From the NCBI RefSeq assembly GCF_053078305.1, contig NZ_CP166879.1: 64,000 nt of DNA, one strand, 5' to 3'. The translations under genes were made by a program, and so were the position numbers. Positions 31,646 through 59,579 of the stretch are shown here, piece after piece (the stretch's first letter is position 1; the number at the start of each line of letters is the position of its first letter). The notes beneath the pieces are model-generated. The model was not told where the DNA came from, ran no database searches, and was given only the letters and a program-made list of their open reading frames with translations.

Positions 31646-32528
31646 GAGTTCCCCGCGCTAGCGGGGATAAACCGTAATGAGTCAGGGGAATACCGAATAT
31701 TTTATAGAGTTCCCCGCGCTAGCGGGGATAAACCGAAATTTATCGAGATCGGCAGGGGTTACTGACAGAGTTCCCCGCGCTAGCGGGGATAAACCGGCCG
31801 TTAATCCGGACTGCCAGCGAATAACGCTGAGTTCCCCGCGCTAGCGGGGATAAACCGCAACATATTTAAACGATTTAAGCCAGGCATATGAGTTCCCCGC
31901 GCTAGCGGGGATAAACCGGGATTCATCACGCGGTTATCCGGGGGCCGTTAGAGTTCCCCGCGCTAGCGGGGATAAACCGGTGGTTGCGGGGTTATCGGTG
32001 GTAGTCACAATGAGTTCCCCGCGCTAGCGGGGATAAACCGCTCCAGCTCGATATCACACGACGCTATATCAGGAGTTCCCCGCGCTAGCGGGGATAAACC
32101 GGAAACAGCGCCCGCCGGTGCTGCGTTACCGTGGAGTTCCCCGCGCTAGCGGGGATAAACCGCCAACAAACTCATTTGCACTGGATTCGTGGATGAGTTC
32201 CCCGCGCTAGCGGGGATAAACCGACCGGCGCAATTGTTTTTCAGCAGCACCCGGCGAGTTCCCCGCGCTAGCGGGGATAAACCGTATTTTCTTTGTTGCG
32301 GTAGGCAATATCGCCAGAGTTCCCCGCGCTAGCGGGGATAAACCGGTATTTTGTCACGACCAGCACGAGGCCGAATAGAGTTCCCCGCGCCAGCGGGGAT
32401 AAACCGCCCCAACTCATGCCCACATGAAAAACGTTGACGAGTTCCCCGCGCCAGCGGGGATAAACCGCCGCAAAAGGTATTATTTTTATCCGTCAGTACG
32501 AGTTCCCCGCGCCAGCGGGGATAAACCA
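31646..32528 (+). CRISPR. CRISPR array, 15 repeats of 29 bp, 14 spacers of 32 bp (type I-E repeat)
   Basis: Exact 61-bp periodicity; 12 repeats GAGTTCCCCGCGCTAGCGGGGATAAACCG then 3 leader-distal repeats with CCAGCG loop; terminal repeat ends ...AACCA. Confidence 0.97.
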
Positions 32529-32996: not shown

Positions 32997-33119
32997 ACAG
33001 GGATAAACCGAACTAGTTAAAGTTTTTATTATGTTCCCTGCATCAGCGGGGATAAACCGGACTTGTTATCATTTTTTAAGTTGTCGAACTTATGTTCCCC
33101 GCGCCAGCGGGGATAACCA
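32997..33119 (+). CRISPR. Vestigial CRISPR remnant (degenerate repeats)
   Basis: Partial repeat GGATAAACCG at 33001, ATGTTCCCTGCATCAGCGGGGATAAACCG at 33031-33059, ATGTTCCCCGCGCCAGCGGGGATAACC at 33092-33118; another fragment near 32617-32637. Confidence 0.7.
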
Positions 33120-33165
33120 TTCAGGTATGTTCAGGCCGGGCAGTTTCCCGCCCGGTTTTCCTCAC

Positions 33166-49568: not shown

Positions 49569-52268
49569 ATGCGTAAATATCCTTTAAGTTTACTGAAGGA
49601 TAAAAATATTGTGACTTTCTTTGATTTCTGGGGAAAAACCCGACGCGACGAGAAAGAAGGGGGTGACGACTATCACCTTCTTTGCTGGCATTCGCTGGAT
49701 GTGGCCGCGATGGGCTATTTAATGGTTAAAAGAAATTGCTTCGGGCTGGCTGATTATTTTCGTCAATTAGGGATTTCTGACAAGGAACAGGCGGCTCAAT
49801 TTTTCGCCTGGTTGTTGTGCTGGCACGATATTGGAAAATTTGCCCGCTCATTTCAGCAACTTTACCTGCACCCACAACTCAAGGTTCTGGAAGGCGCAAG
49901 AAAGAATTACGAAAAGATCTCTCATTCAACGCTGGGCTACTGGTTGTGGCATCATTATTTAAGTGAATGCGAAGAATTGCTTCCTGCCTCTTCACTCTCT
50001 ACTCGCAAACTTAAACGTGTAATAGCGATGTGGATGCCCATGACTACCGGGCATCATGGTCGGCCCCCTGACCGTATTGATGAACTGGATAATTTTCTGC
50101 CTGAAGACAAAGCTGCCGCACGAGATTTTCTCCTTGAAATCAAGTCACTGTTTCCGCTCATAGAGATTCCCACATTCTGGGATGATGACGAGGGCGTTGA
50201 ACTTTTAAAACAACTTTCCTGGTATATCTCTGCAACAGTCGTACTCGCAGACTGGACGGGTTCGTCAACGCGATTTTTTCCACGCGTCGCACAGACAATG
50301 AATATTAAAGATTACTGGCAGAAAACTTTAGTTCAGGCTCAAAACGCCTTAACCGTCTTTCCTCCAAAAGCAGAAACCGCACCTTTCACCGGAATTAATA
50401 CGCTGTTTCCTTTTATTGAGCACCCGACACCATTACAGCAAAAGGTACTGGATCTGGATATCAGCCAGCCAGGGCCACAGTTATTTATTCTGGAAGATGT
50501 GACTGGCGCAGGTAAAACAGAAGCGGCGCTTATCCTGGCGCACAGGTTGATGGCTGAGAATAAAGCTCAGGGTTTGTTTTTTGGCCTGCCAACAATGGCA
50601 ACGGCCAATGCCATGTACGATCGGCTGGTCAAAACCTGGCTTGCTTTCTTTTCGCCAGAATCCCGCCCCAGCCTGGTGCTGGCACACAGCGCCCGTACAT
50701 TAATGGAACGCTTTAATGAATCACTCTGGTCCGGTGATTTAGTCGGGTCAGAAGAACCGGATGAACAAGCGTTCAGTCAAGGATGTGCAGCCTGGTTTGC
50801 CGACAGTAACAAGAAGGCTTTACTGGCTGAAATTGGCGTCGGCACGCTGGATCAGGCGATGATGGCAGTGATGCCGTTTAAACATAATAATCTGCGGCTT
50901 CTGGGGTTGAGTAACAAAATCCTGCTGGCTGATGAGATCCACGCCTGTGACGCTTACATGTCGTACATTCTTGAAGGGTTGATTGAGCGACAGGTGCGTG
51001 GCGGAAACAGCGTCATTTTGCTTTCTGCTACGTTATCTCAACAGCAGCGCGACAAACTTGTCGCCGCCTTTGCGCGTGGCACAGAGGGCCAGCAAGAAGC
51101 TCCGTTCCTGGAAAAGGATGATTACCCCTGGCTGACGCATGTCACGAAATCCGATGTGCATTCGCACCGGGTAGCGACGCGCAAAGACGTTGAGCGTAGC
51201 GTGAGCGTGGGTTGGCTTCATAGCGAACAAGAATGTATTGCGCGTATCGAATCAGCGGTAAGTCAGGGGAAATGCATCGCCTGGATCCGGAATTCTGTCG
51301 ATGACGCTATTAAGGTTTATCGTCAGTTACTTGCCCGCGGCGTCATTCCTGCTTCCAGCCTTTCACTTTTTCATAGCCGCTTTGCTTTTAGCGATCGCCA
51401 GCGAATTGAAACGGAAACGCTGGCACGCTTTGGTAAAAATTGTAGTTTAAAAAGATCATCTCAAGTCATTGTTTGTACACAAGTAATTGAGCAAAGTGTG
51501 GATATTGACCTGGACGAAATGATCTCCGACCTGGCCCCCATTGATTTGCTGATCCAGCGAGCGGGGCGATTACAACGGCATATTCGTGATATTAATGGTC
51601 AGTTAAAACGTGATGGAAAAGACGAGCGTTCCCCTCCTGAATTGCTGATTCTGGCCCCCGTCTGGGACGACTCTCCGGGTGACGAATGGTTTGGTAGTGC
51701 GATGCGTAACAGCGCATATGTCTACCCCGATCATGGGCGAATCTGGCTGACGCAGCGAGTATTGCGTGAGCAAGGCGCTATTCAGATGCCACACGCAGCC
51801 CGGCTTCTTATTGAATCCGTCTACGGTGAGGACGTGGTAATGCCGGAAGGATTTGCCCGCAGCGAGCAGGAGCAAGTGGGCAAATATTACTGCGATCGCG
51901 CAATGGCTAAAAAGTTTATGCTGAACTTCAGGCCCGGCTATGCCGCCAATATCAACGATTACCTCCCGGAAAAGCTGTCGACACGTCTGGCTGAAGAGTC
52001 TGTTTCCCTGTGGCTGGCTACCTGTATTGACGGTGTGGTGAAGCCTTATGCCAGCGGTGCTCACGCATGGGAAATGAGCGTTGCCAGAGTGCGTCGAAGC
52101 TGGTGGAAAAAACATCGGGATGAATTTTCTTTACTGGAAGGGGAAGCGTTCAGGCAGTGGTGCATTGAACAACGGCAAGATCCGGAGATGGCAAACGTGA
52201 TTTTAGTCACCGATGACGAAAGCTGCGGGTATTCGGCTACGGAAGGATTGATTGGCAAGGTTGATTGA
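49569..52268 (+). CDS. cas3: Cas3 HD nuclease / helicase (type I-E)
   Basis: 899 aa; HD motifs (HSLDVAA, HDIGK), Walker A (GAGKTEAA), DEAH-like box (LADEIHACD); preceded by AT-rich promoter region. Confidence 0.92.
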   Translation: MRKYPLSLLKDKNIVTFFDFWGKTRRDEKEGGDDYHLLCWHSLDVAAMGYLMVKRNCFGLADYFRQLGISDKEQAAQFFAWLLCWHDIGKFARSFQQLYLHPQLKVLEGARKNYEKISHSTLGYWLWHHYLSECEELLPASSLSTRKLKRVIAMWMPMTTGHHGRPPDRIDELDNFLPEDKAAARDFLLEIKSLFPLIEIPTFWDDDEGVELLKQLSWYISATVVLADWTGSSTRFFPRVAQTMNIKDYWQKTLVQAQNALTVFPPKAETAPFTGINTLFPFIEHPTPLQQKVLDLDISQPGPQLFILEDVTGAGKTEAALILAHRLMAENKAQGLFFGLPTMATANAMYDRLVKTWLAFFSPESRPSLVLAHSARTLMERFNESLWSGDLVGSEEPDEQAFSQGCAAWFADSNKKALLAEIGVGTLDQAMMAVMPFKHNNLRLLGLSNKILLADEIHACDAYMSYILEGLIERQVRGGNSVILLSATLSQQQRDKLVAAFARGTEGQQEAPFLEKDDYPWLTHVTKSDVHSHRVATRKDVERSVSVGWLHSEQECIARIESAVSQGKCIAWIRNSVDDAIKVYRQLLARGVIPASSLSLFHSRFAFSDRQRIETETLARFGKNCSLKRSSQVIVCTQVIEQSVDIDLDEMISDLAPIDLLIQRAGRLQRHIRDINGQLKRDGKDERSPPELLILAPVWDDSPGDEWFGSAMRNSAYVYPDHGRIWLTQRVLREQGAIQMPHAARLLIESVYGEDVVMPEGFARSEQEQVGKYYCDRAMAKKFMLNFRPGYAANINDYLPEKLSTRLAEESVSLWLATCIDGVVKPYASGAHAWEMSVARVRRSWWKKHRDEFSLLEGEAFRQWCIEQRQDPEMANVILVTDDESCGYSATEGLIGKVD

Positions 52269-52271
52269 GAT

Positions 52272-52323
52272 GCCCTGGCGTCGGATGACGCCAGGGCTTA
52301 TCCCCGCTGACGCGGGGAACAGG
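52272..52323. repeat. Perfect 11-bp hairpin followed by inverted orphan CRISPR-repeat-like sequence
   Basis: GCCCTGGCGTC-ggat-GACGCCAGGGC at 52272-52297; minus-strand reading of 52295-52323 is CCTGTTCCCCGCGTCAGCGGGGATAAGCC, 25 of 27 identical to the array repeat. Confidence 0.8.
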
Positions 52324-52718
52324 AACCAATTTTTGTATCTCACTAACTTGGTTAATCCCTAGAATCAGGGAATGGATTTATTTTATCAATGCTATTGTGA
52401 TTATGATAGATGGGTAATTGCTATGAGTTAATGAGAAACAAAAATTTTAAATAATGTCCGGATCCGGAGTTGAGTCACACCGTTACAAGGCGTATTTTCG
52501 TGACCGGTGAAAAGCTGCGGTGAAGAGGACTACGATGTTGTCGATTTTTTTGCTTCAACTTGTGCTAAGTCTGCTTTCAAAACGACAAACTAAGTTCGAT
52601 TTTCGTATCACATTCAACGTCTTTTCTTTTATCCGACTCAGATTAAGTCTCCAACTAAATCTGAAAATATGGTGATGGACAACCGACCAGGGATGGTCTT
52701 TTCTACGAGAGGATGCGT

Positions 52719-54281
52719 ATGAACTCGTTTTCACTTCTGACAACCCCGTGGTTGCCCGTTCGTTTTAAAGACGGAACGACAGGCAAACTGGCGCCAGTCG
52801 ATCTGGCTGATGAAAATGTTGTCGATATCGCTGCGCCACGAGCAGATCTCCAGGGAGCAGCATGGCAGTTTTTACTGGGGCTACTACAAACCAGTTTCGC
52901 GCCCAAAAATCATGGTCGTTGGGATGATATCTGGCAAGACGGACTGGAAGCCGAAAAGCTACGGGAAGCATTGCTGTCTTTAGAACATGCTTTCCAGTTT
53001 GGGCCAGATTCCCCTTCATTTATGCAGGATTTCGAGGCGCTCACGGGAGATAAAGTTCAGGTTGCTTCATTACTGCCTGAGATTCCCGGCGCTCAAACAA
53101 CGAAGTTTAATAAAGACCACTTTATTAAGCGTGGCGTGACTGAACACGTATGCCCTCATTGTTCCGCGTTAGCTCTGTTCTCCCTACAGTTAAATGCACC
53201 GTCAGGCGGCAAAGGCTACCGAACCGGTTTACGCGGCGGTGGGCCGATGACGACTCTGATTGAATTGCAGGAGTATCAGGGCAATCAACAAGCCCCCTTG
53301 TGGCGCAAACTGTGGCTCAACGTGATGCCGCAGGATGAAGCCGACTTACCGCTACCCAAAAAATTTGACGATCTGGTTTTCCCCTGGCTTGGCCCGACGC
53401 GTACCAGCGAACTGGCCGGTGCGGTGGTAACCGATGATCAGGTCAATAAACTCCAGGCGTACTGGGGAATGCCGCGGCGTATTCGTATTGATTTTAATAC
53501 CACGACAGTCGGCAACTGCGATATTTGCGGTGAGCAGGACGACGCGCTTCTGAGCCTGATGACGACCAAAAATTACGGTGCGAATTATGCCATGTGGCAG
53601 CATCCATTAACGCCTTACCGTGTACCACTTAAAGAGGGTGGCGAGTTTTACTCAGTTAAACCACAACCAGGCGGTTTAATTTGGCGCGACTGGTTAGGCC
53701 TTATCGAAACGGGTAAGTCAGAAAACAATACGGAACTTCCCGCTCTGGTGGTGAAACTCTTTAATGCCAGCAGTCTCAAGCAGGCAAAAGTAGGCCTATG
53801 GGGATTTGGCTATGATTTCGACAACATGAAAGCCCGCTGTTGGTACGAACACCGTTTCCCGCTGCTGCTCAATAAAAAAGAAGGCCAGATACCGAAACTG
53901 CGGCTGGCTGCGCAAACGGCTTCACGCATTCTAAGTCTGTTACGGAGTGCATTGAAAGAAGCATGGTTCTCCGATCCAAAAGGTGCACGGGGTGATTTCA
54001 GTTTTGTGGATATCGACTTCTGGAACAAAACTCAGCATCGCTTCCTGAGGTTAGTGCGCCAAATTGAAGAAGGTCAGGATGCGGATGAATTACTCAGCAA
54101 ATGGAATAAGGAGATTTGGTTATTCTCGCGTCAGGATTTTGACGAGCGTGTATTCACCAATCCTTATGAGCCCGTTGATTTAAAACGCGTCATGACCGCG
54201 CGCAAAAAATATTTTACAACATCGGCGGAGAAGCAAAATGCTAAAGCCGCCAGGGAGAAAAAGCAGGAGGCTGCTGAATGA
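52719..54281 (+). CDS. cse1: Cse1/CasA (Cas8e), Cascade large subunit
   Basis: About 520 aa first gene of Cascade operon; ATG 52719 has better RBS spacing than 52713; position between cas3 and cse2. Confidence 0.85.
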   Translation: MNSFSLLTTPWLPVRFKDGTTGKLAPVDLADENVVDIAAPRADLQGAAWQFLLGLLQTSFAPKNHGRWDDIWQDGLEAEKLREALLSLEHAFQFGPDSPSFMQDFEALTGDKVQVASLLPEIPGAQTTKFNKDHFIKRGVTEHVCPHCSALALFSLQLNAPSGGKGYRTGLRGGGPMTTLIELQEYQGNQQAPLWRKLWLNVMPQDEADLPLPKKFDDLVFPWLGPTRTSELAGAVVTDDQVNKLQAYWGMPRRIRIDFNTTTVGNCDICGEQDDALLSLMTTKNYGANYAMWQHPLTPYRVPLKEGGEFYSVKPQPGGLIWRDWLGLIETGKSENNTELPALVVKLFNASSLKQAKVGLWGFGYDFDNMKARCWYEHRFPLLLNKKEGQIPKLRLAAQTASRILSLLRSALKEAWFSDPKGARGDFSFVDIDFWNKTQHRFLRLVRQIEEGQDADELLSKWNKEIWLFSRQDFDERVFTNPYEPVDLKRVMTARKKYFTTSAEKQNAKAAREKKQEAAE

Positions 54282-54814
54282 GTATTGTAAAAGAGGAGCA
54301 CAAAGCCACGCTGCGTAAATGGCACGAAGAGTTGCAGGCTAAACGCGGCAATCGTGCCAGTCTGCGGCGTAGCACAACGGTTAATGATGTTTGCTTGTCA
54401 GAAGGGTTTCGTTCTCTGCTGATGCAGACCCACACTTTGTGGAAAATTGAAGCACAAGAGTGGCGTTTTACCGCACTGGCGCTGGTCGCCGCAGTTAGCG
54501 CCAATGTAAAAGCCATTGATGAACGGCAGCCTTTTGCCGCGCAGCTGGCGGCGGTAATGTCGGAGGGGCGTTTTACTCGCCTGTCGGCAGTAAAAACGCC
54601 GGATGATTTACTGCGTCAGTTACGTCGCGCGGTCAAATTATTAAACGGTTCCGTCAATCTTATCTCTTTGGCAGAAGATATTTTCCGCTGGTGCCAGGAG
54701 AGCGACGACCTGCTCAATCATCACCGCCGCCAGCAGCGGCCAACCGAATTTATCCGTATCCGCTGGGCACTGGAATATTACCAGGCTGGCGACGCCGATA
54801 ACGAACAAAATTAA
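54278..54814 (+). CDS. cse2: Cse2/CasB, Cascade small subunit
   Basis: 178 aa; ATGA overlap with cse1. Confidence 0.85.
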   Translation: MSIVKEEHKATLRKWHEELQAKRGNRASLRRSTTVNDVCLSEGFRSLLMQTHTLWKIEAQEWRFTALALVAAVSANVKAIDERQPFAAQLAAVMSEGRFTRLSAVKTPDDLLRQLRRAVKLLNGSVNLISLAEDIFRWCQESDDLLNHHRRQQRPTEFIRIRWALEYYQAGDADNEQN

Positions 54815-54828
54815 TAAAGGACTATCTC

Positions 54829-55884
54829 ATGACAACATTTATTCAGCTTCATTTGTTAACCGCTTACCCTGCTGCCAACCTTAACCGTGATGATACTGGT
54901 GCGCCAAAAACTGTGGTACTGGGTGGTGCAACGCGTCTGCGCGTTTCCTCACAAAGTCTGAAACGTGCGTGGCGCACTTCTGCACTTTTTGAACAGGCAC
55001 TGGCGGGCCATATTGGTATTCGCAGTGGGCGAATTGCGCGTGAGGCGGCAACTATCCTGATTGAGAAAGGAATCGAAGAGAAAAAAGCCATCGAATGGGC
55101 GGCAAAAATTGCGGATTATCTTGGGAAAGCTAAAAACGACAAAAAACCAAAAGATCCGCTCACTAACGCCGAAACTGAACAATTAGTTCATATCAGCCCG
55201 GCAGAATTTGACGCCGTAAAAGCGCTGGCCCATCAACTGGCAGAAGAAAAGCGCGCGCCAAAAGAGGAAGATCTCGCGTTGTTACGTAAAGACCGTATAG
55301 CGGTAGATATCGCTATGTTTGGTCGTATGCTGGCGAATAAACCTGAGTTTAATGTTGAAGCCGCCTGCCAGGTCGCGCATGCGTTTGGTGTCAGTGAAAC
55401 GATTGTCGAAGATGATTTTTTCACCGCCGTTGATGATTTGCGCCAGGCCTCTGAAGATGCCGGTGCCGGGCATCTCGGAGAAACCGGATTCGGTTCAGCA
55501 CTTTTCTACACCTATATCTGCATTGATAAAGATCTGCTGGTAGAAAACCTCGGCGGTGACGAAGCGTTAGCTAATCAGACCATACGCGCTTTTACGGAAG
55601 CCGCGCTTAAAGTTTCCCCAACCGGTAAACAAAATAGCTTTGCCAGCCGTGCCTACGCCTCCTGGGCGCTGGCGGAAAAAGGCACTGATCAACCGCGTTC
55701 TCTGGCGGCGGCTTTCTATGAACCCATTAATGGTACCCGTCAGTTAGATGTGGCGGTGCAGCGTATTACAACGCTTCGCGAAAACATGAATACGGTCTAC
55801 GAACAGAAGACTGAATGCGCAAGTTTTGACGTGATGAACAAACAGGGAAGCATGAAGGACGTACTGGACTTTATCTGCGCGTAA
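54829..55884 (+). CDS. cas7: Cas7e/CasC, Cascade backbone subunit
   Basis: 351 aa with LNRDD...RVSSQSLKRA N-terminal signature recalled from CasC. Confidence 0.88.
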   Translation: MTTFIQLHLLTAYPAANLNRDDTGAPKTVVLGGATRLRVSSQSLKRAWRTSALFEQALAGHIGIRSGRIAREAATILIEKGIEEKKAIEWAAKIADYLGKAKNDKKPKDPLTNAETEQLVHISPAEFDAVKALAHQLAEEKRAPKEEDLALLRKDRIAVDIAMFGRMLANKPEFNVEAACQVAHAFGVSETIVEDDFFTAVDDLRQASEDAGAGHLGETGFGSALFYTYICIDKDLLVENLGGDEALANQTIRAFTEAALKVSPTGKQNSFASRAYASWALAEKGTDQPRSLAAAFYEPINGTRQLDVAVQRITTLRENMNTVYEQKTECASFDVMNKQGSMKDVLDFICA

Positions 55885-55894
55885 GGGGCGGCTT

Positions 55895-56641
55895 ATGAGC
55901 CAATATCTGATTTTTCAGCTTCATGGGCCAATGGCATCCTGGGGCGTCGATGCCCCCGGCGAAGTGCGTCATACCCATGAACTGCCTTCGCGCTCAGCAT
56001 TGCTGGGTCTGCTGGCTGCCGGGGTAGGGATTCGGCGTGATGATACCGAACGCTTAAACGCGTTTAATCGCCACTATTCACTGGTGGTTTGCGCCAGCCG
56101 TAACCCGCGCTGGGCACGGGATTATCACACGATCCAGATGCCAAAAGAGGTGCGCAAAGCGCGTTATTTCAGCCGTCGCGAAGAGTTGAGCGACTCTGAT
56201 CTTCTGAGCGCGATTATCTCCCGGCGCGACTACTACACCGACGCCTGGTGGATGGTGGCGGTGGCAACAACAGCCGATGCGCCTTACAGCCTCGAACAGT
56301 TGCAGGGCGGTTTACGCCATCCAGTTTTTCCTCTTTATCTGGGGCGAAAAAGTCATCCGCTGGCATTACCACTTGCGCCGTTACTGCTCGAAGGCAACGC
56401 GTCTGATGTTTTACGTAACGCATACCAACAGTATCAGGATCATTTCCACGACCTGAAAGTCTCACTCCCGAAACTTCAGGATGAATGCTGGTGGGAAGGG
56501 GAGCACGACGGCCTGGTCGTGAGCAAAATATTACGCCGCCGGGATGTTCCTTTAAATCGCCAGCAGTGGCTGTTTGGGGAACGCACCGTCAATCAGGGGC
56601 CGTGGCTCAGCAAGGAGGAACCATGTACCTCTCAAGAATAA
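55895..56641 (+). CDS. cas5: Cas5e/CasD
   Basis: 248 aa; N-terminal L.GPM..WG motif typical of Cas5e. Confidence 0.85.
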   Translation: MSQYLIFQLHGPMASWGVDAPGEVRHTHELPSRSALLGLLAAGVGIRRDDTERLNAFNRHYSLVVCASRNPRWARDYHTIQMPKEVRKARYFSRREELSDSDLLSAIISRRDYYTDAWWMVAVATTADAPYSLEQLQGGLRHPVFPLYLGRKSHPLALPLAPLLLEGNASDVLRNAYQQYQDHFHDLKVSLPKLQDECWWEGEHDGLVVSKILRRRDVPLNRQQWLFGERTVNQGPWLSKEEPCTSQE

Positions 56642-57269
56642 CCTTACATACCGCTCAGCTTTTGCCTGCGCAGTTGCTGCATCTGGTGGATCGCGGTGAA
56701 TATGTGATGCATCAGTGGCTGTGGGATCTCTTCCCTGGCGGCAAAGAAAGGCAATTTCTTTATCGTCGGGAGGAACTTCAGGGTGCGTTTCGCTTTTTTG
56801 TCCTCTCGCAGGAACGCCCGGCGGAAAGTGAAACTTTCACTATCGAATGCCGGTCATTTGCTCCGGAGCTGCGTACCGGACAATCCCTTTGTTTCAACCT
56901 GCGGGCGAATCCCACAATTTGTAAAGCGGGCAAGCGCCACGATCTGCTGATGGAGGCGAAACGGCAGGTGAGGGGACAGGCGGAAGGGCGTGATGTCTGG
57001 TTGCATCAACAACAGGCGGCGCTGGACTGGCTGGCAGCGCAGGGGGAGAGAAGCGGTTTTACACTGCTGGATACCTCGGTTGATGCCTACCGACAACAGC
57101 AACTGCGGCGGGAAAACTCCCGGCAACTGATCCAGTTCAGTAGCGTGGATTATACGGGGATGCTTACGGTCACCGATCCCGGGTTATTTCTGCAACGTCT
57201 CAGTCAGGGGTATGGCAAAAGCCGCGCGTTCGGCTGTGGTCTGATGCTGATCAAACCCGGAGCAGAGGT

Positions 57270-57273
<4 letters not shown>
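56623..57273 (+). CDS. cas6e: Cas6e/CasE, crRNA endoribonuclease
   Basis: ATG at 56623 after AGGAGG RBS, 216 aa starting MYLSRI...; overlaps cas5 end by 19 nt; ORF track shows only a longer upstream-extended frame. Confidence 0.85.
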
Positions 57274-58483
<1,210 letters not shown>

Positions 58484-58579
58484 GTTATGTGTTCTTTAAA
58501 AATAAGGAAATGTTTGAATTTAGTTGGTAGATTGTTGATGTGGAATAAATTTGTTTAAAAACAGATATGTATGCTTAGT
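58484..58579 (+). promoter_or_regulatory. CRISPR leader for array 1
   Basis: AT-rich, contains AGTTGGTAGATTGT at 58522-58535, 45 nt upstream of first repeat. Confidence 0.8.
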
Positions 58580-59579
58580 GTGTTCCCCGCGCCAGCGGGG
58601 ATAAACCGGGGGGGCAATAATATGTGCGGCGGATCACCAGGTGTTCCCCGCGCCAGCGGGGATAAACCGTCGGAAAAATGGCTGGCCTCAACGGTGAAAA
58701 CGTGTTCCCCGCGCCAGCGGGGATAAACCGCCAGGGTGAAACTTTTCGCTGACGTAAATAAAGTGTTCCCCGCGCCAGCGGGGATAAACCGACAATCACA
58801 TATACGACGCGAGACGGAGATCGGTGTTCCCCGCGCCAGCGGGGATAAACCGTGATGGGCGAATACAAGCGCTGGCGCAACGAGGTGTTCCCCGCGCCAG
58901 CGGGGATAAACCCGGCATTCTTAACCGGCGCAACAAGGGGGGCGCGTGTTCCCCGCGCCAGCGGGGATAAACCGGTTAACTCCAGGTGGCGCGGCAGTGT
59001 TCAGAAGTGTTCCCCGCGCCAGCGGGGATAAACCGTGCTCTCATTTGTGTCGGCATCACTCGCGTCGGTGTTCCCCGCGCCAGCGGGGATAAACCGTCTG
59101 CCGCGAGCTGGTCTACGCCTACGCCATGGTGTTCCCCGCGCCAGCGGGGATAAACCGACATATGCCACAACCAGGCGAAGAAAAGTGTTCCCCGCGCCAG
59201 CGGGGATAAACCGCCCGTCACCGACGCGCAGTGGCGCTACCGTGAGTGTTCCCCGCGCCAGCGGGGATAAACCGGTCGCTGGGTTATTTTGTGTTGTGGG
59301 GCGATCGTGTTCCCCGCGCCAGCGGGGATAAACCGCTCATATTCGGATTGATCGTGTGTTTCGGTTTGTGTTCCCCGCGCCAGCGGGGATAAACCTGCGT
59401 ATATCTGTTGATGCGCACGGCGTGGCGGGTGTTCCCCGCGCCAGCGGGGATAAACCGAATGATTTAATACCAGACGCAGAGTGCCACACGTGTTCCCCGC
59501 GCCAGCGGGGATAAACCGGGCGCACTGGATGCGATGATGGATATCACTTAGAATTCCCCGCCCCTGCGGTAGAACACCC
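58580..59579 (+). CRISPR. CRISPR array, 17 repeats (GTGTTCCCCGCGCCAGCGGGGATAAACCG), 16 spacers
   Basis: 61-bp periodicity except one 56-bp unit (27-nt spacer at 59158-59184); degenerate terminal repeat GAATTCCCCGCCCCTGCGGTAGAACACCC at 59551-59579. Confidence 0.97.

Follow-up and report, generated by a model that had tools for sequence, protein, structure and literature searches.

A natural Escherichia coli type I-E CRISPR array whose repeat-end variants probably record the base preceding the protospacer

Introduction

That the final base of a type I-E repeat is set by the captured spacer is already known and is an ordinary property of these systems. The mechanism, in which a 28-nt duplicon is joined to a 33-nt spacer whose first base derives from the PAM, was published in 2012-2013 (PMC3338789, PMC3737337). 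Swarts 2012 (PMC3338789) reported that the last repeat nucleotide always equalled the PAM's third nucleotide and that the variant base was not propagated; repeats ending in CCT were paired with AAT, those ending in CCA with AAA or CGA, and a natural CCT repeat end was noted in CRISPR 2.3 of K-12. For the non-K12 variant of the system, Diez-Villasenor 2013 (PMC3737337) described a 28-nt duplicon, 33-nt spacers and a CWT (= AWG) motif. For leader-A arrays the counts were 34 of 55 for CAT versus 9 for CTT, and CAT/ATG is the commonest natural PAM (PMC3737337). Slipped acquisition (Shmakov 2014, cited by Stringer 2020, bioRxiv 10.1101/2020.02.10.942821, who also quantified it) adds a further source of irregular flanks: +1 and -1 slips together accounted for some 60% of the non-AAG primed acquisitions seen on the non-target strand. 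During naive adaptation in E. coli, AAG makes up about 25% of pre-spacer usage (bioRxiv 10.1101/2020.02.10.942821).

Here we analyzed a window of 64,000 nucleotides (contig NZ_CP166879.1 of RefSeq assembly GCF_053078305.1) containing a natural array in which two repeats end in an unusual base. The locus resembles the system of Swarts 2012 in that the repeat end equals the -1 base of the protospacer (T where the PAM is GAT; G in the four controls, where it is ATG or CTG) and is not propagated. It differs in that the earlier cases were laboratory plasmid acquisitions in K-12, whereas the present one is an inherited unit in a wild array, associated with another cas variant and with a prophage target.

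Results

A type I-E locus between cas2 and iap

An E. coli type I-E CRISPR locus lies in the window, with its array in the CRISPR2.1 position between cas2 and iap. Large open reading frames extend across 49569-58483, and the final two are cas1 (57270-58193) and cas2 (58190-58483), both on the plus strand, as are the leader, repeats and spacers described below. Over residues 1-304, the cas1 product matched structures of E. coli K-12 Cas1 (3NKD among others) at E = 4e-174 with many substitutions, and cas1e is annotated at the corresponding place in related strains with the same leader. The cas2 assignment rests on the size (97 aa) and position of the reading frame, which are those of the annotated cas2e in two fetched loci, L002 (strain Res13-Sevr-PER07-33) and L014. 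An AT-rich leader (58484-58579), which by eye matches that of Res13-Sevr-PER07-33, runs from cas2 to the first repeat. The newest spacers of the array lie at the 58580 end, since the leader sets its orientation.

Array 1 (58580-59579) comprises 16 full 29-nt repeats (GTGTTCCCCGCGCCAGCGGGGATAAACCG) spanning 58580-59518, 16 spacers and a degenerate terminal repeat at 59551-59579. A repeat pattern search of the window gave 34 matches against 0 expected from shuffles. The period is 61 nt in 14 of the 15 full-repeat spacings, and both this period and the 29-nt repeat GWGTTCCCCGCGCCAGCGGGGATAAACCG are those of E. coli type I-E arrays. The array is flanked by cas2 and the leader on one side and by iap, on the opposite strand, on the other; where other E. 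coli genomes match this region, they carry CRISPR and iap annotations, and the order cas1e, cas2e, CRISPR, iap is the same in related strains with the same leader. When the whole of array 1 was compared with complete E. coli genomes, none shared more than the trailer-end spacers and spacer A1.11.

The locus appears to be of the non-K12 cas-EO variant (leader-A, or 'CRISPR-A'), which it resembles in its GTGTTC-type repeats next to cas2, its Cas1 divergent from that of K-12 and its mostly ATG PAMs; this assignment draws on repeat type, on Cas1 and Cas2 lengths shared with related strains and on PAM usage. The earlier note had taken AAG as the normal PAM, which needs correcting for this variant: its usual natural PAM is ATG, within AWG, and not AAG alone (PMC3737337), and ATG also precedes three of the four control protospacers described below.

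Several irregularities were seen around the locus. Spacer A1.10 (59158-59184) is only 27 nt long, giving one unit of 56 instead of 61 nt with perfect repeats on both sides, and has probably either lost 5 nt internally or been acquired in aberrant form. Another small irregularity of acquisition length is found in the array of the same type in Res13-Sevr-PER07-33, where a 33-nt spacer (L002 651-683) makes a 62-nt unit. Further upstream, a reading frame of 899 aa occupies the cas3 position (49569-52268). Directly after its end lies a GC-rich hairpin (CCCTGGCGTC...GACGCCAGGG), followed by a lone degenerate, inverted CRISPR repeat on the minus strand (TTCCCCGCGTCAGCGGGGATAAGCC, 2 mismatches); the two together span 52273-52320, in the intergenic stretch before the next large reading frame (52713-54281).

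Variation confined to the last repeat base

Comparison of the 16 full repeats of array 1 confirmed what had been noticed from the letters alone: position 29 is G in 14 of them, C in repeat 6 (58885-58913, final base at 58913) and T in repeat 14 (59368-59396, final base at 59396). The spacers behind the variants, A1.06 and A1.14, lie at 58914-58945 and 59397-59428, as the earlier note had placed them. Positions 1-28 are invariant throughout. Both variants are isolated, and the newer, leader-proximal neighbors end in G again.

Could these be point mutations at the last base of two repeats, arising after acquisition and bearing no relation to the flank of the protospacer? Old, trailer-proximal E. 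coli repeats do gather substitutions, seen in the fetched arrays at positions 1, 9, 12, 13, 18, 27 and 28, and the T variant sits in the old part of its array, in unit 14 of 16. Yet array 1 shows just two substitutions across its 16 x 29 repeat positions, and each of them is at position 29, with the other 28 untouched; under uniform mutation this has a probability of about (1/29)^2 = 0.001. The wider set points the same way. Of 87 unique repeat-spacer units from the fetched arrays, 83 have G at position 29, 3 have T and 1 has C; this position shows 4 independent variants, and no other position shows more than 2 independent events. Moreover, T equals the base preceding the protospacer both for A1.14 and for a second, independent T case (see below). 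We therefore regard mutation as very unlikely. With roughly one unit in twenty ending in a base other than G, the phenomenon is an ordinary one.

Array 2 of the same window (31646-32528) shows how a true repeat mutation behaves. There, position 14 reads T instead of C in all 12 leader-proximal repeats (31646-32345) and C in the three oldest, a change propagated by successive duplications. The position-29 variants of array 1, in contrast, are solitary, and this combination is the signature expected if duplication covers only 28 nt of the repeat and the spacer brings base 29 with it. All 14 spacer-preceding repeats of array 2 end in G; its terminal repeat (32500-32528) ends in A. By our reading, position 14 of its repeat is a loop base of the repeat hairpin. 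About 500 nt past array 2, two degenerate repeats enclosing one spacer (33031-33120) look like a remnant array, and the same arrangement is present in strain no107 (L004 2737-2826).

The T variant and its prophage protospacer

BLAST with 59397-59428, as the earlier note had suggested, recovered a protospacer for A1.14 (GCGTATATCTGTTGATGCGCACGGCGTGGCGG), which together with the T at 59396 would make up a 33-nt integrated fragment. Among complete E. coli genomes, the spacer matched 31 of 32 positions in a gene of a lambdoid prophage of E. coli STEC384/STEC379, a hypothetical coding sequence; upstream of it are the O/P replication genes, and ninG and holin genes lie downstream. The flank reads GCGACCAGAT/GCGTATATC (the slash marks the start of the protospacer), with T at -1 and GAT as the adjoining PAM; at 31/32 this is a present-day prophage and not the actual donor, whose flank could have differed. 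The proposal that a repeat end other than G was copied from a non-canonical PAM is thus supported for the T unit, where T stands at -1 and the PAM is neither AAG nor ATG. Outside these genomes A1.14 was unmatched by blastn (word 11, E <= 10) in either 50,697 phage records or 72,556 plasmids, its first 20-mer had no match in IMG/VR, and the whole target gene had no blastn match in the phage collection.

The spacer itself is present in the arrays of six other complete E. coli genomes. In all three of these that were read (L002, L014 and L015), each sequenced independently, the repeat before A1.14 ends in T, while the leader-proximal spacers are unlike those of array 1. This marks the T as old and inherited and not as a sequencing error. 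Errors of sequencing or assembly in the window would also not be expected solely at position 29 of otherwise perfect repeats, and although the C variant and its spacer were found in no other sequence (complete E. coli genomes; exact look-up of reading-frame products), we consider such errors extremely improbable as the source of the variants.

The targeted gene is 639 bp long (L001 5711-6349, in STEC384) and is also matched by spacers of two other E. coli lineages, one in L004 with PAM ATG and one in L003 with PAM GCG, and the same strand carries all three protospacers. The gene may be a recurrent natural target or an acquisition hotspot.

G-ending controls and a second natural T case

Four spacers of the window that follow a G-ending repeat could be traced, and all four protospacers have G at -1. 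Three of them are preceded by ATG: A1.07 (32/32, in an ST131 prophage), A1.13 (30/32, in a phage capsid gene) and A2.13 (32/32, in a phage ImmA gene). The fourth, A1.05, has a weak match of 29/32 in a Klebsiella phage with PAM CTG. Three of the four protospacers thus have AWG on their 5' side, in each case as ATG.

Res13-Sevr-PER07-33 has two further T-ending repeats besides the one before A1.14. The spacer behind one of them (L002 867-927) has a perfect protospacer in a chromosomal lateral-flagellar gene cluster (fliD, lafA, flgL, flgK), found in at least 59 genomes among the matches listed; a query with two spacers matched 1,276 genomes. In the one copy read (L017 4001-4032, labelled DH5alpha) the flank is GACGCCT/GCACCG, again with T at -1 and with CCT as the PAM. 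Position 29 hence equals the -1 base of the protospacer in every traceable case, namely A1.14, this second T case and the four controls. By chance, T would stand at -1 about once in four, and in both T cases together about once in sixteen. The CCT of this protospacer is also identical to the last three bases of its repeat, and the spacer is therefore likely to be interference-dead and harmless.

Slipped or plain non-canonical capture of the T unit

The earlier note had further suggested that the variants arose by slipped acquisition. For the T unit this is plausible. The boundary GAT/G holds an ATG at -2 to +1, one base out of register. This is what a -1 slip would give, with the capture window starting one base upstream of where a canonical ATG would place it; ATG also precedes three of the four control protospacers. 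The 33-mer of the unit accordingly begins one base before the canonical G start, and the unit length stays at 61 nt. In its NAT the T unit mirrors the NAA that results from a -1 slip at AAG, as slipped acquisition (Shmakov 2014) is cited and quantified in Stringer 2020. There, however, slips were scored statistically against AAG in K-12, whereas here we have one natural event that is not separable from capture at GAT: the offset ATG has a chance expectation of about 1/16, and with a single event a slip and plain capture at GAT cannot be told apart.

Two other derivations of the T unit did not fit the prophage sequence. For a flip, the 3' flank of the protospacer (CGTTCTGT) has no CAT or CTT in register. 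A +2 slip would need AAGAT or ATGAT; the prophage, which around the protospacer reads GCGACCAGAT/GCGTATATCTGTTGATGCGCACGGCGTAGCGG, has CAGAT.

Both variants could instead have been captured at genuinely non-canonical PAMs (GAT for the T unit, NNC for the C unit) with no slip, at the kind of poor site that is commonly used in naive adaptation. Position 29 would still equal the -1 base, so that the main mechanism is kept and only the word 'slip' is at stake. The modest share of AAG in naive pre-spacer usage agrees with such capture (bioRxiv 10.1101/2020.02.10.942821), as do the AAT, AAA and CGA PAMs with matching repeat ends in Swarts 2012 (PMC3338789), and one G-ending control has CTG. Furthermore, no AWG lies within two bases of the CCT-flanked lateral-flagellar protospacer, so some natural units that do not end in G are plain non-canonical captures. 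Set against this are the out-of-register ATG in GAT/G, the dominance of ATG among the traceable spacers of this strain (3/4) and the finding that +1 and -1 slips explain most non-canonical primed acquisitions (bioRxiv 10.1101/2020.02.10.942821). Capture with no slip is, on balance, possible but somewhat doubtful, and we favor a -1 slip for the T unit.

The C variant

Spacer A1.06 (GGCATTCTTAACCGGCGCAACAAGGGGGGCGC, 58914-58945) would, together with the C at 58913, form the corresponding 33-nt integrated fragment. From the same phage and plasmid collections, blastn with A1.06 (word 11, E <= 10) returned only a 19-nt chance match in Azospirillum, and at E <= 1 there was no match in 5,426 complete E. 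coli genomes, other arrays included. In IMG/VR, neither exact 20-mers of both halves nor two wobble-degenerate 31/32-nt patterns had a match. The first 20 nt hit nine loci in GTDB genomes and JGI metagenomes, all of them 22/32 chance matches in unrelated bacteria, and an exact look-up of the products of five spurious reading frames across array 1 revealed no other assembly with the same units. In the collections searched, then, no protospacer contradicts a point mutation of this repeat. We nonetheless infer, by analogy with the T unit and from the fact that both variants occupy position 29, that the C arrived with A1.06 and that the same base stood before its protospacer. A -1 slip away from AWG cannot account for this unit, as it would need A or T at the repeat end. 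The C would be explained by a +1 or +2 slip (AWGC, AWGNC) or by a non-canonical PAM such as AAC or ATC.

Discussion

We consider it very probable that position 29 of the repeat in this cas-EO type I-E array derives from the PAM, with the T plausibly explained by a -1 slip and the C by extension of the same reasoning. Under this explanation, Cas1-Cas2 would duplicate the leader-proximal repeat no further than its first 28 nt and integrate a fragment of 33 nt. This fragment would begin with the base that closes the PAM, and it is this base that is then read as 'repeat position 29'. Each spacer would thus keep, at position 29, a record of the base at -1 of its protospacer: G after an ATG or AAG PAM, and another base if the cut that yielded the fragment did not fall right behind an AWG. 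For the T at 59396, the source would be the lambdoid phage sequence GAT/GCGTATATC, from which it would have come with 59397-59428, most likely by a capture displaced one base upstream of the canonical ATG. The C at 58913 would have come likewise with 58914-58945, from a protospacer presumably preceded by C.

Whether such spacers still protect their host may depend on the PAM they were taken from. In K-12, GAT was protective in one phage assay and non-interfering ('stable') in plasmid assays (PMC6568314), and because these reports conflict, A1.14 may be a weak or priming-only guide. It is also conceivable, if rather unlikely, that natural arrays keep a fossil record of mis-registered acquisitions and that such spacers are preferentially retained when directed against prophages or chromosomal islands: PAMs such as GAT and CCT would not support interference and would hence, we propose, cause no autoimmunity. 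The 639-bp prophage gene targeted on the same strand by three lineages is in line with such a record and hints at a hotspot.

The importance of these observations beyond annotation is small, and they amount to a textbook illustration and not a discovery. For the cas-EO variant, which has been studied less and normally uses ATG as its PAM, the locus offers a clean example from nature. It confirms that the true boundary in E. coli type I-E arrays is a 28-nt repeat and a 33-nt spacer, and it follows that polymorphisms at position 29 are spacer sequence recording the -1 base and not repeat mutations. Counting this extra base lengthens the spacer match, which is useful both for PAM prediction and for matching spacers to phages.
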